From NCBI GenBank assembly GCA_902500125.1, contig GCA_902500125.1_4132.1: 64,000 nucleotides of DNA, one strand, 5' to 3'. The notes below the pieces were generated by a model that had not been told where the DNA came from, ran no database searches, and saw only the letters and a program-made list of their open reading frames with translations. Below, piece by piece: positions 19,768-27,850 of the stretch (positions are counted from its first letter, which is position 1; each line of letters starts with the position of its first letter). This stretch comes from Escherichia coli (lineage in GTDB: Bacteria; Pseudomonadota; Gammaproteobacteria; Enterobacterales; Enterobacteriaceae). The position numbers and the translations under genes are program-made.

Positions 19768-19802
19768 AAAATCCTCCTTTATTCATTATACTATATTTAA
19801 TC
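19768..19802 (-). promoter_or_regulatory. conserved promoter-like motif TTAAATATAGTATAATGAATAAAGGAGG
   Basis: Identical block precedes six paralogs; contains TATAAT and a strong SD. Confidence 0.5.
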
Positions 19803-19832
19803 AAAAAGAAAAGCCAGTGTTAAGTACTGGCA
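19803..19832 (-). terminator. rho-independent terminator
   Basis: Minus-strand GCCAGTACTTAACACTGGC followed by TTTTCTTTTT. Confidence 0.65.
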
Positions 19833-19838
19833 TAAAAT

Positions 19839-21008
19839 CTAAGCAGAAGGCATATTCTTCATCTTAATAAATGAAAATTGTGTACCAGTATTTGTGGTTT
19901 GATCAGTAAAATATGAATTACTCCCAGCCCAGTACAATTCATTATTGACTATACAATATATAACAGAACTCGAACTCTGTGAATACACACGACTTATATT
20001 TGATTGTTCTACTCCAGTACTGAACTGAACTACCCCCAACTGTGAACTTGGTATTACATTAGTTGGTCTACCTAAACCGTTAACACCCGCTCCACCACCA
20101 CATGTATATACTCCAGTACTATCAGTTGATATATTAACATAACCATTTCCGGCATTTTCAAATAGTATTTCACTGGGAACAACACCAAATCCTGTAAGAT
20201 CTATTTTCCTGAATGTAGTGTAAACAGTAGAACCACCAACACCTCTTCCACCATAATCATTAGAACCAGCCATATAGATACTATATCCAGAACTTCCTAA
20301 ACATAATAACTGTACGTTGTCATATAAAATTTGCATAGATATAACGTTATCAGGAATACTCAATACCGTAAAAGTAGTTAAAGAAGAACTTCCAATATTA
20401 CTACCAACCGATGTTCCACATCTGTAGTACTTACCGCCTTTTATATAATGGAACGATGAACCGCCTAACTTATGTGCTCCTATTTCACTTACCCCAGTAT
20501 CTATAAGAATGGGAGATACAACTTTGTTATTAACACCTAACTCAGATCTACTGTTCATACCGAACCCATATAAACGACCATCTAACATCAATATTAGTGT
20601 ACTACCTGACGTACCTGCTGACGTAAATTCTATATTCTTTATTTGCGACACGTCAATACCTACAAATAATGAAGTTACTTCAGTCCAGTTAACATATGAA
20701 CCACTAGCCCCAAAATATCCACCCATGTATAGTCCGGCACAATATAACTTATTATCAACCGTCTTTATTAATGTACCGGATACACACGCCCAAAAATCAT
20801 CAACTTCATAGGGTACATGTACCCAACCACCTAATACATCACTATCATTCCCTGTTCCTAATTTGTAGTTCGATCCAGAACCACGCATATACATATTCCC
20901 TGTACTATAAAGTAATCCGACATGTAATTGACTACCATCCAATTTCTTTATTTCGGGAAGAGTTGGTTTAATATTTCCGTACTTTAACATTCTTCCAAAA
21001 GGTAACAT
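19839..21008 (-). CDS. RCC1-like repeat beta-propeller protein, paralog 2
   Basis: Internal Met MLPFGRMLKYGN with RBS AAGGAGGAATTATG; ORF-track start at 21074 lies upstream of the promoter motif. Confidence 0.8.
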   Translation of the reverse strand: MLPFGRMLKYGNIKPTLPEIKKLDGSQLHVGLLYSTGNMYMRGSGSNYKLGTGNDSDVLGGWVHVPYEVDDFWACVSGTLIKTVDNKLYCAGLYMGGYFGASGSYVNWTEVTSLFVGIDVSQIKNIEFTSAGTSGSTLILMLDGRLYGFGMNSRSELGVNNKVVSPILIDTGVSEIGAHKLGGSSFHYIKGGKYYRCGTSVGSNIGSSSLTTFTVLSIPDNVISMQILYDNVQLLCLGSSGYSIYMAGSNDYGGRGVGGSTVYTTFRKIDLTGFGVVPSEILFENAGNGYVNISTDSTGVYTCGGGAGVNGLGRPTNVIPSSQLGVVQFSTGVEQSNISRVYSQSSSSVIYCIVNNELYWAGSNSYFTDQTTNTGTQFSFIKMKNMPSA

Positions 21009-21045
21009 AATTCCTCCTTTATTCATTATACTATATTTAATACAA
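21009..21045 (-). promoter_or_regulatory. conserved promoter-like motif
   Basis: Minus-strand TTAAATATAGTATAATGAATAAAGGAGGAATTATG. Confidence 0.5.
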
Positions 21046-21073
21046 ATAAGAAAGCCAGTACAAAGTACTGGCA
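21046..21073 (-). terminator. rho-independent terminator
   Basis: GCCAGTACAAAGTACTGGC; the minus-strand transcript continues with a U-rich tail. Confidence 0.6.
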
Positions 21074-21086
21074 TAGTTTTATAGTA

Positions 21087-25446: not shown

Positions 25447-25452
25447 TAGTAT

Positions 25453-26580
25453 TCAAAAAGGTAAATCAATTTGCTTAGTAATAATAGTATCTAACGGTAT
25501 TGAACACAATGAGAAATTCTTTCCACCCGTATTTTTAGGATTATATCCATTCATCCATACATTATTACCTTCGTAAAATGTATTCCAGTATAAAGACCCA
25601 CTATATCGTGTATTCGAATTGAACGATGTAAAATTGAATTCTTGAAATGCTGTAAAATATGGAAGGGAACTTGAACTACTTCCCGTAAATGGGGTATGCC
25701 CAGTTGCTATTAGTTTGTTTGTATCTGCATTAATTAAAAATACAACACTAGTCGAATAGTCCAACGAATCAGGATGATATATATTACTCATATCACCTAT
25801 AGTAAAACCAACATCAAAAACTTTACTATGTGCACCACTACCAGCAAAAGTAGTTCCAGTTGCATATATTTTATTATCAGATGTTATCATTACAAAACCA
25901 ACACCAGAAACAAAACTGCATTTTATATCATAAGATATATCATCAAACAACGGAACAAATGTGGTTGCATCACCCGATGTTGCTTTAACTTGAAAGCTGT
26001 TATTTGAACCTGAACCATATACAGTTCCATCGTTTTTAATCTTAAACAATGTATCGCCAAGGTAACCGCCAAATATATTATCCACATTAGTGTCAAGTAC
26101 AGTCCACGCTGAAACATAATTTTTATGTCCTAAACCTAATGAACCACTTCGATTCCATCCTCTTCCATAAAGTGTTCCGTCTTTCATTAATATAAATGCT
26201 GTATAACCACATAACATTTTTTTAATTTGGGTAACATCTATACCAGTGAAATACACAGCCCAGTCAGTATATCCTTGTTGGAAAGTATTAGAATTCGTGA
26301 ATGCATATGTTGAACCTGAACCATATATTTTATCACCTTTAATAACAACGGAAAACGATCCTAACCATAAGTCATCAACTTCAGTTGTGATTTGTTGAAC
26401 TGCTCCTAACGATACAAACTGTGTACTTAAACCCGCATTATAGTTTGAATCTTCACCGTGTGCATATACAGTGCCATCTTGCATTAGAAACATTTCAAGA
26501 GTGTAACTAACAACACTTTTCTTTATATTATTAACTTCGATTATATTCCCATAATCAAACATTCTAACAAAAGGTAACAT
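25453..26580 (-). CDS. RCC1-like repeat beta-propeller protein, paralog 7 (375 aa)
   Basis: MLPFVRMFDYGN; RBS AAGGAGGGAAATATG. Confidence 0.8.
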   Translation of the reverse strand: MLPFVRMFDYGNIIEVNNIKKSVVSYTLEMFLMQDGTVYAHGEDSNYNAGLSTQFVSLGAVQQITTEVDDLWLGSFSVVIKGDKIYGSGSTYAFTNSNTFQQGYTDWAVYFTGIDVTQIKKMLCGYTAFILMKDGTLYGRGWNRSGSLGLGHKNYVSAWTVLDTNVDNIFGGYLGDTLFKIKNDGTVYGSGSNNSFQVKATSGDATTFVPLFDDISYDIKCSFVSGVGFVMITSDNKIYATGTTFAGSGAHSKVFDVGFTIGDMSNIYHPDSLDYSTSVVFLINADTNKLIATGHTPFTGSSSSSLPYFTAFQEFNFTSFNSNTRYSGSLYWNTFYEGNNVWMNGYNPKNTGGKNFSLCSIPLDTIITKQIDLPF

Positions 26581-26612
26581 ATTTCCCTCCTTTATTCAAT
26601 ATACTATATTTA
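26581..26612 (-). promoter_or_regulatory. conserved promoter-like motif
   Basis: TTAAATATAGTATATTGAATAAAGGAGGGAAATATG. Confidence 0.45.
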
Positions 26613-26643
26613 ATCAAAAAAAGCCAGTACTCAAGTACTGGCA
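26613..26643 (-). terminator. rho-independent terminator
   Basis: GCCAGTACTTGAGTACTGGC followed by TTTTTTTG. Confidence 0.65.
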
Positions 26644-26649
26644 TATCAA

Positions 26650-27816
26650 TTACGAAAAACGTGGATCATCAAGAACAAACACGGTACTACTTGGACCACC
26701 TTGTGTGGTGACAGCACTAGTACTGTAAAGAAAGTTACCATCTGTCATATAAGTTCTACGATTCGTACAAATAACTCTTACTTTATTCATATCGATATCA
26801 GGATTAGGTAATGGACATGAAGTATACACTGATACATCAGTACTTGTTCCTATTCCCAGCGTACCTTCATTTGTGGTTGAACCGCTATTCAACCCACTAG
26901 CATATATACCACTGCTTGTAATAACAAAAGTGGCGTAGAATGGAGAACCTTCACCTATATTTAATTTAGTTCCAGGTGGTTGTCTTGCCGCAGCAACCGC
27001 ACCATATGCTTTCCCACCAGATGTGGCAAGATTACCAAGAGCACCATACTGTTGTTGTCCACCATTATACACTGTGTTAGTGCCATCACTGTTAGTGTGG
27101 ATACCAATAGAATTATAGTTACTGTTGCTATATACTAAAGCGGCATTAGAAGTAACTGTATTTCGTGTATATACTTTATATTGTTGGGTAAAATTACCAC
27201 TAGTGGACGTACCCTGTACAGTTCCAGTGTAGTATATATATCCGTCTGTACCAATGAATGAGTGCATAACACTACCTGCAAAAATTTTTTCTGGAGTAAC
27301 ACCTGACGGTATTGTTGATTGTACAAATCTACCCACTACATTTGTTGTTGTATTATTTCCCAATTGACCGGAGTCACCATAACCACTTGACCATATGGTA
27401 TTGTTCTCAAGAAGAACACTAATTGATAATCTTGATAAAGCTATTTCTTTAACATCACTTTCTAATGTATCAAAAAATGAAGTACAATTTGTCCAAGTGT
27501 TCACTACGCTAGAACTAACACCAATTTGTTTATTATCACCAGAACTATAATAATTCCCATCATATGTTTGTATAAGTATAACAGAACCACCAACCCATAC
27601 TTTATCAACTGAACCAAACGTTCTTGTCCATGTGGTAACTATATCCCCGCTATTATTACCCAATCCAAAGCAACCACTACTATCTACGCCTCGTACATAT
27701 AAATCTCCTGAAGTCATCAGAACTGCACAGAATGATTGTGCACCTTTAACATCTTTAATTGGCTCTGGTTCAGGTGCAACATTTCCATAATCAAACATTC
27801 TTACAAAAGGTAACAT
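26650..27816 (-). CDS. RCC1-like repeat beta-propeller protein, paralog 8 (388 aa)
   Basis: MLPFVRMFDYGN; RBS AAAGGAGGGATTTATG; C-terminal ...STVFVLDDPRFS. Confidence 0.8.
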   Translation of the reverse strand: MLPFVRMFDYGNVAPEPEPIKDVKGAQSFCAVLMTSGDLYVRGVDSSGCFGLGNNSGDIVTTWTRTFGSVDKVWVGGSVILIQTYDGNYYSSGDNKQIGVSSSVVNTWTNCTSFFDTLESDVKEIALSRLSISVLLENNTIWSSGYGDSGQLGNNTTTNVVGRFVQSTIPSGVTPEKIFAGSVMHSFIGTDGYIYYTGTVQGTSTSGNFTQQYKVYTRNTVTSNAALVYSNSNYNSIGIHTNSDGTNTVYNGGQQQYGALGNLATSGGKAYGAVAAARQPPGTKLNIGEGSPFYATFVITSSGIYASGLNSGSTTNEGTLGIGTSTDVSVYTSCPLPNPDIDMNKVRVICTNRRTYMTDGNFLYSTSAVTTQGGPSSTVFVLDDPRFS

Positions 27817-27850
27817 AAATCCCTCCTTTATTCATTATATCATATTTACC
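27817..27850 (-). promoter_or_regulatory. conserved promoter-like motif (variant)
   Basis: Minus-strand TAAATATGATATAATGAATAAAGGAGGGATTTATG. Confidence 0.45.

Follow-up and report, generated by a model that had tools for sequence, protein, structure and literature searches.

How are the genes of a tandem array expressed when nearly the same short block of DNA stands before most of them? We addressed this question for an array of RCC1-like paralogs on the minus strand of a 64,000-nucleotide stretch of DNA (contig GCA_902500125.1_4132.1 of assembly GCA_902500125.1, deposited as Escherichia coli), referred to here as the window. The window comes from a 121Q/PBECO4-like jumbo coliphage of the Rak2-like genus Asteriusvirus. 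A preliminary description of this DNA had singled out a 28-bp block, TTAAATATAGTATAATGAATAAAGGAGG, and had proposed that it represents a phage-specific late or middle promoter with TATAAT as its key element and no -35 hexamer. Our analysis points to a neighboring element instead. The block is probably the core of a late-gene expression junction, in which a terminator, a T4-type late promoter with the core TAAATA, a ribosome binding site, and an N-terminal protein module follow one another. The junctions are best read as separating virion-protein cassettes that would be expressed independently and shuffled by recombination.

A repeated junction upstream of the array genes

The repeat itself is real. 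Allowing up to three mismatches, the 28-mer matches the window six times, always on the minus strand and only within the array, compared to 0.00 matches expected in shuffled sequences. Where six exact copies had been claimed, we found three (19773-19800, 21013-21040, and 24575-24602); two further copies carry one mismatch (25385-25412 and 26586-26613), and one carries three (27822-27849). A seventh, degenerate copy, recognizable by TAAATA at 18519-18524, precedes the decayed last paralog. The block had also been said to precede each RCC1 paralog. Two of the nine genes (starts at 23386 and 22196) lack it and are translationally coupled to the preceding gene, and one gene behind the block (24642-25379) encodes a Gly-rich protein without RCC1 repeats; the other seven intact genes have RCC1-like Pfam hits. 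The block does lie just upstream of the start codon, ending 4 to 5 nt before the ATG rather than directly at it. The perfect Shine-Dalgarno (SD) sequence, AGGAGG, was confirmed, at a distance from TATAAT of 6 nt (GAATAA) rather than about 8 nt.

Two conserved parts of the locus had been missed: a GC-rich hairpin followed by a T-run, the shape of an intrinsic terminator, before the block in internal units, and about 36 nt of highly conserved coding sequence after it. With them, the block forms a sharply bounded junction of about 105 bp. Read 5' to 3' on the minus strand, an internal unit consists of the preceding stop codon, a hairpin (GCCAGTAC-loop-GTACTGGC) with an 8-bp GC-rich stem and a loop of 3 to 4 nt, a T-run, (G)TAT-TAAATA, three free bases, TATAAT or a similar hexamer, the leader GAATAA, AGGAGG, 4 to 5 nt, and ATG TTA CCT TTT, the first codons of a shared N-terminus, MLPFxRMxKYGN. 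Mean pairwise identity is 0.63 to 0.95 from position -75 to +29, compared to about 0.3 at the end of the preceding gene and about 0.4 in the gene bodies, and the conserved island extends, relative to the ATG, from about -75 to about +30. It falls into two parts that can occur separately. All nine units have the SD sequence and the N-terminal codons; the hairpin and the promoter-like part are limited to units with an intergenic spacer. In other genomes, a 102-nt form of the junction occurs at 396 places in 44 records, with 9 to 16 copies per Asteriusvirus genome; among the matches listed, it lies over RCC1-type or hypothetical genes of such arrays.

Conservation of TAAATA and of the second hexamer

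We compared 89 units from 10 phages of at least four genera: the window phage, G17, 121Q, SP27, phAPEC6, CMSTMSU, EJP2, Salmonella phage Munch, Erwinia phage Hallingskeid, and Pectobacterium phage CBB. The units were found by their N-terminal codons only, therefore the upstream region was sampled without bias. TAAATA is present at a near-fixed distance in all 64 junctions that contain a spacer, including 7/7 in the window. The remaining 25 units are translationally coupled, and none of them has TAAATA. The three bases that follow TAAATA occur in 10 variants (TAG, TGA, TAT, TAA, CAT, CCT, CTG, CGT, CTA, and CAG). At the second hexamer, 45 of the 60 unique sequences have TATAAT and the others TATAAC, TATATT, TATGAT, TATAAA, TAACGA, AATATT, or GATATT; several of these variants would destroy a sigma70 -10 element. 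The choice of TATAAT as the key element is therefore not borne out: the adjacent TAAATA is invariant, and it is also the hexamer that recurs genome-wide before late genes and is avoided elsewhere, as described below.

One alternative keeps TATAAT in the leading role, as the -10 element of a -35-less promoter read by the host sigma70 or by an RpoD-like sigma factor (121Q encodes one, gene 167). In its dual form, this element would act together with the late element and provide early or middle expression in addition to late expression. Beyond the frequency of the perfect hexamer, its spacing of three bases from TAAATA is kept in EJP2 and Munch despite a diverged leader. In the first unit of the window (27834-27842), as in those of 121Q and CMSTMSU, the three free bases are TGA, which creates an extended -10 shape, TGnTATAAT. 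TAAATA and TATAAT separated by three or four bases occur 13 times in 121Q, compared to about 0.5 expected, and nearly never at other spacings; of these composites, eight belong to the array, four precede structural genes elsewhere (31, 155, 597, and the tube gene 553), and the remaining one is an orphan. We nevertheless consider this alternative unlikely. Changes that destroy a sigma70 -10 element are tolerated: TATAAC occurs four times, CBB has AATATT or GATATT, and TAACGA stands in the usual place of TATAAT in the last unit of four genomes (the window, G17, 121Q, and SP27). The reported lack of a -35 hexamer holds, with the best match to TTGACA at a spacing of 16 to 18 nt reaching at most 3/6 in 57 of the 60 unique junctions. 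The extended -10 shape is restricted to first units; in internal units, TAG, TAT, or CAT precedes the hexamer. The window's real sigma70-type promoters look different, with TTGACA or TTGCAA and often TGn. In addition, a start 7 nt downstream of TATAAT would place the 5' end on the SD sequence itself. A second AT hexamer 3 to 4 nt after the core is also found in the late regions of T4 genes 20 and 26, so it can belong to a late architecture. On the late-promoter reading, the second hexamer overlaps the predicted start site and could reflect a sequence preference of the initiation region, serve as a second recognition element, or give dual control as a weak sigma70 -10 element. We rejected the simpler idea that the block is a sigma70 promoter like those of the window's other intergenic cassettes, because it has neither a -35 hexamer nor TG.

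Association with structural genes and genome-wide avoidance

The proposed promoter class extends beyond the array only through its core: the full 28-mer is confined to the array, whereas TAAATA also stands before other late genes. We quantified this association in the complete genome of 121Q, in which the counterpart of the window occupies roughly 96 to 165 kb. TAAATA lies 15 to 60 nt upstream of 31 of the 43 annotated structural genes and of 36 of the 565 other genes (Fisher p=8e-24). When only genes with at least 40 nt of upstream gap are counted, it precedes 24/25 structural genes and 19/219 others (p=2e-20). The genes that carry the motif include those for the major capsid protein (TATAAATAATATCATAC), scaffold, tube, baseplate hub, and long tail fiber, along with many "virion structural proteins," and the sequence TAAATATAGTATA is common to tail-fiber gene 607 and the array block. 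The recurrent motif upstream of these genes is nTAAATA without a -35 hexamer. In the profile of the 31 structural-gene promoters, the core is preceded by A in 22/31, positions -10/-9 are rich in T, and the sixth base downstream of the core, where T4 geometry would put the start site, is A in 23/31; no -35 is conserved. We examined whether TATAAT is part of this general late consensus and discarded the idea, because the profile downstream of the core shows only the A at the sixth base. That TATAAT is not a general feature of these promoters is a further point against its being the -10 element.

TAAATA is also avoided elsewhere in the genome. Among the 64 AT-only hexamers, it shows the strongest depletion in 121Q, with 231 copies observed and 891 expected, a ratio of 0.26 to composition and of 0.47 compared to a maximal-order Markov model, and its complement behaves likewise. 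TATAAT is not depleted (rank 49/64) and is therefore evidently no signal on its own. Of the 231 TAAATA copies, 74 sit 15 to 60 nt upstream of a start on the same strand. The density of TAAATA is 0.66 per kb in 121Q and about 2.5 to 3 per kb in unrelated AT-rich phage contigs. In the window, there is no sense-strand TAAATA in the 36-kb block of plus-strand early genes, and the only copy of the T4 octamer TATAAATA precedes a homolog of the virion protein 121Q_199. The depletion suggests selection against stray late promoters, and avoidance elsewhere argues that the core works on its own, as in T4. We also scanned IMG/VR with ATGTTACCNTTTNNNAGAATG; beyond 121Q and CBB, the matches were 10 environmental contigs without the MLPF..YGN start, which we dismissed as chance matches and used only as a composition control.

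A candidate reader of such promoters is encoded by the same relative. Gene 591 of 121Q has hits to two late sigma families, phrog_12791 (E=3e-154) and phrog_234 (E=8e-18), and is separate from the RpoD-like gene 167. A report on the clade had already predicted a late motif, ATAAATA, upstream of structural genes in CBB and GAP32 (PMC5259590). An RNA sequencing paper on phage PA5oct lists sigma70-like promoter motifs only. The preliminary idea of a -35-less, T4-like late promoter read by a phage sigma factor is thus favored, because the block contains the structural-gene motif of 121Q, relatives encode a gp55-family sigma, and the array proteins are virion-borne (see below). What changes is the element, TAAATA in place of TATAAT. 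The suggestions of a middle promoter and of a modified RNA polymerase found no support.

Terminator-like hairpins and cassette exchange

The hairpins have a median dG of -12.9 kcal/mol with a T-run behind them, and they are missing from first units. A consensus scan flagged them, and they are annotated as terminators in G17 (ARNOLD) and Munch. Their shape is kept in EJP2, Munch, Hallingskeid, and CBB, where the stem sequence differs. Rfam searches of the array and of an open reading frame (ORF)-poor region of the window gave no matches near the gathering scores.

We located breakpoints by blastn of the window array against G17, 121Q, SP27, phAPEC6, CMSTMSU, and EJP2. Segments of high identity begin at a hairpin and end 20 to 45 nt into the next gene, which places the breakpoints within junctions. 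Compared to SP27 and phAPEC6, the window carries the cassette of the eighth gene (about 19745-18555) as an insertion that runs precisely from junction to junction, and window-type and EJP2-type junctions are mixed in the CMSTMSU array. The array region is 88 to 98% identical to 37 jumbo coliphage or Salmonella phage records of the 121Q/PBECO4/G17 group, none of which covers more than 50% of it; the array is therefore a mosaic.

Such exchange raises the possibility that the block is kept by tandem duplication and gene conversion only and that internal promoters are lacking. In that case, a single operon would be transcribed from unit 1, with the hairpins acting as attenuators or as mRNA-stabilizing 3' ends after processing. 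Recombination between junctions clearly happens, given that they are nearly identical within a genome and contain the breakpoints, and the three-gene unit of the window (u4 to u6) indicates that paralogs can be expressed without a promoter of their own. A single operon nevertheless seems very unlikely to us. Gene bodies fall to about 40% DNA identity while the junction holds 85 to 95%. Across four genera, the three free bases and the leader change freely and TAAATA never does, which argues for selection on the hexamer rather than mere homogenization. TAAATA also marks unrelated structural genes and is avoided elsewhere, and every unit with a terminator-shaped hairpin has TAAATA directly after it, as expected if transcription must restart.

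The breakpoints could also mean that the junction is primarily a recombination or DNA-binding site, with its CCAGTAC/GTACTGG stem perhaps bound by a phage protein and its promoter features incidental. The palindrome AGTACT, which forms hairpin stems, is in fact the most over-represented hexamer, with 903 copies in 121Q (118 expected) and 278 in the window (22 expected). However, the CBB hairpin has an unrelated stem (AGCTCAAC/GTTGGGCT) and is still followed by TAAATA, first units carry the promoter elements without any hairpin, and the breakpoints need no more than general homologous recombination acting on about 100 bp of identity. We regard this explanation as highly improbable.

Array proteins and their shared N-terminus

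The coding part of the junction specifies a 12-residue start, M[LI]PFxR[MIL]xxYGN, followed by a Pro-rich linker, and is found in at least four genera (in the window, for example, at 27781-27816 on the minus strand). The same start is joined to unrelated bodies (RCC1, Gly-rich, Kelch, and Laminin_G_3), and it is probably a shared virion-docking module. We did not adopt the view that it is a protease-cleaved capsid-targeting sequence of the T4 internal protein type, because no consistent (L/I)xE protease-type motif follows MLPF..YGN.

Several members of such arrays are located in virions. Virion mass spectrometry detected six array proteins of phAPEC6 (PMC7247149, Table 1), a phage whose array shares about 97% identity with parts of the window array. 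The homologous array of CBB encodes Kelch-like and LamG proteins with the same N-terminus and includes annotated virion structural proteins, and an RCC1 protein of GAP32 is noted as a virion component in PMC5259590. PDB sequence searches with an RCC1 paralog and the Gly-rich protein found no phage structure; the only hits, where there were any, were weak ones to eukaryotic RCC1 folds. Databases label the RCC1 genes "DNA condensation / nucleotide metabolism"; our results would reassign them to late-expressed virion proteins with a docking-type N-terminus. They may also relate to the unexplained "hairy" decorations on phAPEC6.

A model for the junction

In the model that we favor, an intrinsic terminator would end the transcript of the preceding cassette. 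A T4-type late promoter would come next, a -10-like element with the core TAAATA and no -35 hexamer, read by the host RNA polymerase core with a phage gp55-family late sigma. Transcription would start about 5 to 7 nt downstream of TAAATA, inside the TATAAT-like hexamer, leaving a leader of about 20 nt with the perfect AGGAGG 4 to 5 nt before the ATG. The 12-codon module and the Pro-rich linker would then dock unrelated bodies (an RCC1 propeller or a Gly-rich domain here, Kelch or LamG elsewhere) onto the virion. Because the junction of about 105 bp is repeated, it could serve as homology for the gain, loss, or substitution of cassettes between genomes.

Several points weigh against this model. 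We infer promoter activity from sequence association, and the structural-gene statistics come from the whole 121Q genome rather than from the window's own genome. The gp55-family sigma gene is likewise found in 121Q and does not lie within the 64-kb window. The array cores match the T4 octamer TATAAATA imperfectly: internal units have ATTAAATA (6/8), unit 1 has GGTAAATA, and unit 9 has CCTAAATA. Internal units carry T immediately before the core, as does only 1/31 of the 121Q structural-gene promoters, and the array junctions may act as promoters that are weak or tuned in a special way. A simple late-promoter model does not require the second hexamer, which is nevertheless kept across genera. 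Homologs of gp33 and gp45 were reported as undetected in CBB (PMC5259590), so the mechanism of activation may differ from that of T4. Our literature search found no data on transcription start sites, timing, or terminators for any Asteriusvirus.

If the model is correct, it offers a testable regulatory map for a large and poorly understood group of phages, in which a 6-nt core would predict the late genes of Asteriusvirus. For engineering, the junction would be a ready-made module for inserting virion-displayed domains.

Layout of the array

The window contains mainly small plus-strand genes, and the array is its only sizeable block on the minus strand (Table 1).

Table 1. Positions of the array genes (u1 to u9), their junctions, and adjacent elements in the window; genes and junctions are numbered in the direction of transcription.
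Feature	Coordinates	Strand	Details
Divergent sigma70-type promoter	27866..27894	+	TTGACA-17-TACTAT; predicted to drive plus-strand small genes from 27920
Unit 1 promoter region (putative)	27834..27848	-	TAAATA-TGA-TATAAT; no hairpin upstream; first gene of array
u1, RCC1-like paralog	26650..27816	-	N-terminus MLPFVRMFDYGN; SD 27822-27827
Junction 2	26586..26641	-	hairpin 26624-26641, T-run, TAAATA 26607-26612, TATATT 26598-26603, SD 26586-26591
u2, RCC1-like paralog	25453..26580	-	
Junction 3	25385..25444	-	hairpin 25428-25444, T-run, TAAATA 25406-25411, three free bases TAT, TATAAT 25397-25402, SD 25385-25390
u3, Gly-rich non-RCC1 protein (phrog_4474)	24642..25379	-	same start, MLPFGRMIKYGN
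Junction 4	24575..24633	-	hairpin 24617-24633, T-run, TAAATA 24596-24601, TATAAT 24587-24592, SD 24575-24580
Three-gene unit	21087..24570	-	u4 (23395-24570), u5 (22577-23386, truncated), u6 (21087-22196)
Junction 7	21013..21071	-	hairpin 21055-21071, T-run, TAAATA 21034-21039, TATAAT 21025-21030, SD 21013-21018
u7, RCC1-like paralog	19839..21008	-	
Junction 8	19773..19831	-	hairpin 19813-19831, T-run, TAAATA 19794-19799, TATAAT 19785-19790, SD 19773-19778
u8, RCC1-like paralog	18562..19767	-	
Junction 9, diverged	18496..18554	-	hairpin 18538-18554, T-run, C-TAAATA 18519-18524, GGAGG 18496-18500
u9, last paralog	18067..18490	-	frameshift after 52 codons (decaying copy)
Orphan junction past array end	17324..17411	-	hairpin 17388-17411 and T-run, TAAATA-N4-TATAAT 17324-17339

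Unit 1 and the divergent sigma70-type promoter share one intergenic region of 103 bp. Within the three-gene unit, u5 and u6 have neither a hairpin nor a promoter, only SD sequences (23391-23396 and 22202-22207) that abut the preceding stop codon. The u5 protein is cut to 269 amino acids, with a remnant ORF behind it (22208-23386 region), and the same truncation is found in 121Q, SP27, and phAPEC6; the phAPEC6 protein gp007 (30 kDa) was found in virions although it is truncated like u5.

The orphan junction has a CCAGTAC/GTACTGG hairpin and no minus-strand gene behind it, running antisense into a plus-strand gene (17010-17381). It is kept in 121Q at 116347-116362, and it may be what remains of a lost cassette, or it may act as an antisense late promoter.

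Other repeated sequences in the window

The hexamer that forms the array stems is abundant elsewhere. AGTACT, CAGTAC, and GTACTG are the top three of all 4,096 hexamers by over-representation, and AGTACT often occurs as CAGTACTG (194 copies, 3.4 expected). Every reading frame contains AGTACT sites, as do 19 of the 32 sigma70-like promoter spacers and the terminator stems of the array; examples lie at 32000-34300 and in promoter spacers at 34 to 53 kb. AGTACT is enriched 8- to 16-fold in the CBB, Munch, Hallingskeid, and EJP2 loci, compared to 0.7- to 3.2-fold in unrelated AT-rich phage contigs. A search of the literature for this excess found nothing.

At 32115-34225, the window has about 2.1 kb almost without ORFs, located at the minimum of the cumulative GC skew; the homologous region of 121Q is unannotated. 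Among its repeats are TCAGTACTGA, present in about 18 copies in both orientations; a 53-bp sequence repeated exactly in tandem at 33949-34054, with a third, degenerate copy; and 28 nt that occur identically at 32291 and 32361. From its sequence, the region looks iteron-like or origin-like.

Two kinds of sigma70-type cassettes resemble the promoter-early stem-loop (PeSL) cassettes of T4-type phages. Five plus-strand composites (about 3286-3339, 6514-6581, 7261-7325, 9119-9188, and 14031-14100) have the -35 hexamer inside a terminator stem, in the form GGTTGACTTCGGTCAGCC-TTTTTTGT-TATAAT, followed by an SD sequence. Between about 34100 and 53000, also on the plus strand, small genes are preceded by early-promoter cassettes, about 30 in number and nearly identical. 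These consist of AAAGTACTTGCAA-17 nt-(TG)TATAATGTTTTACATC, a GGGG...CCCC stem-loop in the 5' leader, and an SD sequence, and they resemble the polyG/polyC stem-loops described for PeSLs. The presence of these cassettes elsewhere in the window makes the different design of the array junction clear.

Comparison with known systems

T4 late promoters have TATAAATA at -10 and no -35, and they are read by the gp55 sigma with the gp33 co-activator and the gp45 sliding clamp; their activity is coupled to replication, and transcription starts about 6 nt downstream of the element. The array shares with them a single A/T-rich -10-type element that contains TAAATA, the lack of a -35 (upstream of the array core lies the terminator T-run), and the gp55-family sigma encoded by the relative 121Q. 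We compared T4 by sequence only, as its RefSeq record has no promoter features. In T4, TATAAATA ends 14 to 28 nt before the ATG of genes 19, 20, 22, 24, 51, 26, and inh, compared to 25 nt in the array. Gene 51 has TATAAATA-GAATAAAAGGAG and gene 26 has TAAATA-TGA-TAAATA-AAGGAG, both with a short leader like that of the array; gene 20 has TAAATA-TAAC-TATAAT. A short leader and a second AT hexamer are therefore not foreign to genuine late regions. The array differs from T4 in its conserved TATAAT-like hexamer 3 nt downstream of the core, and the consensus of the clade itself is (A)TAAATA, unlike the T4 octamer. The likeness is probably one of homologous mechanism rather than mere resemblance.

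The motif described for CBB and GAP32 belongs to the same clade, has the same core, and stands before structural genes; our 121Q result reproduces and quantifies it. The part of PMC5259590 that we could consult makes no link to RCC1 or Kelch arrays or to junctions of hairpin, promoter, ribosome binding site, and N-terminus, and it does not mention genome-wide avoidance. The late motif class is already known as a prediction for this clade. New are the place that the motif takes in the junction, its combination with TATAAT, the avoidance of the core across the genome, and PeSL-like behavior with a late-type promoter.

The internal proteins of T-even phages share an N-terminal capsid-targeting sequence that is cleaved after Glu by the prohead protease. 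Their loci resemble the array in encoding variable virion-packaged proteins with a repeated promoter and stem-loop before each gene and a short conserved N-terminus. They differ in being based on early promoters and in the Glu-cleaved N-terminus, compared to no consistent Glu motif after MLPF..YGN in the array. These T-even loci have been cited as analogs of PeSLs, with elements based on T4 early promoters (PMC2839356).

PeSLs themselves (PMC2839356, PMC4122927) are compact, repeated intergenic elements that combine a stem-loop terminator with a promoter, as the junction does within about 60 nt in six to seven copies. Like the junction, they flank variable genes, and the breakpoints of indels or replacements between related genomes fall inside the element. 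Excised mini-circles have been shown for PeSLs. The promoter and the cargo are different. A PeSL carries an early promoter with a strong sigma70 consensus, consisting of a -35, a -10, and AT-rich DNA upstream, and flanks ORFans in hyperplastic regions; the array junction has no -35 hexamer, carries a late-type TAAATA, and serves virion proteins. The array repeat, unlike a PeSL, runs into the coding region through the SD sequence and 12 conserved codons. The phrase "late promoter" is absent from the main text of the 2010 PeSL paper (PMC2839356). We tentatively suggest, with somewhat more doubt than confidence, that the junction is the late-promoter counterpart of a PeSL and a portable boundary made up of terminator, late promoter, ribosome binding site, and docking peptide, and that TAAATA-N3-TATAAT marks a distinct subclass of late promoter with extended or dual recognition. 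If so, Rak2-like jumbo phages could attach any C-terminal domain (RCC1, Kelch, LamG, or Gly-rich) to the virion and shuffle these domains by homologous recombination, and the idea that regulatory repeats act as recombination joints would widen from early ORFans to late structural-gene cassettes.

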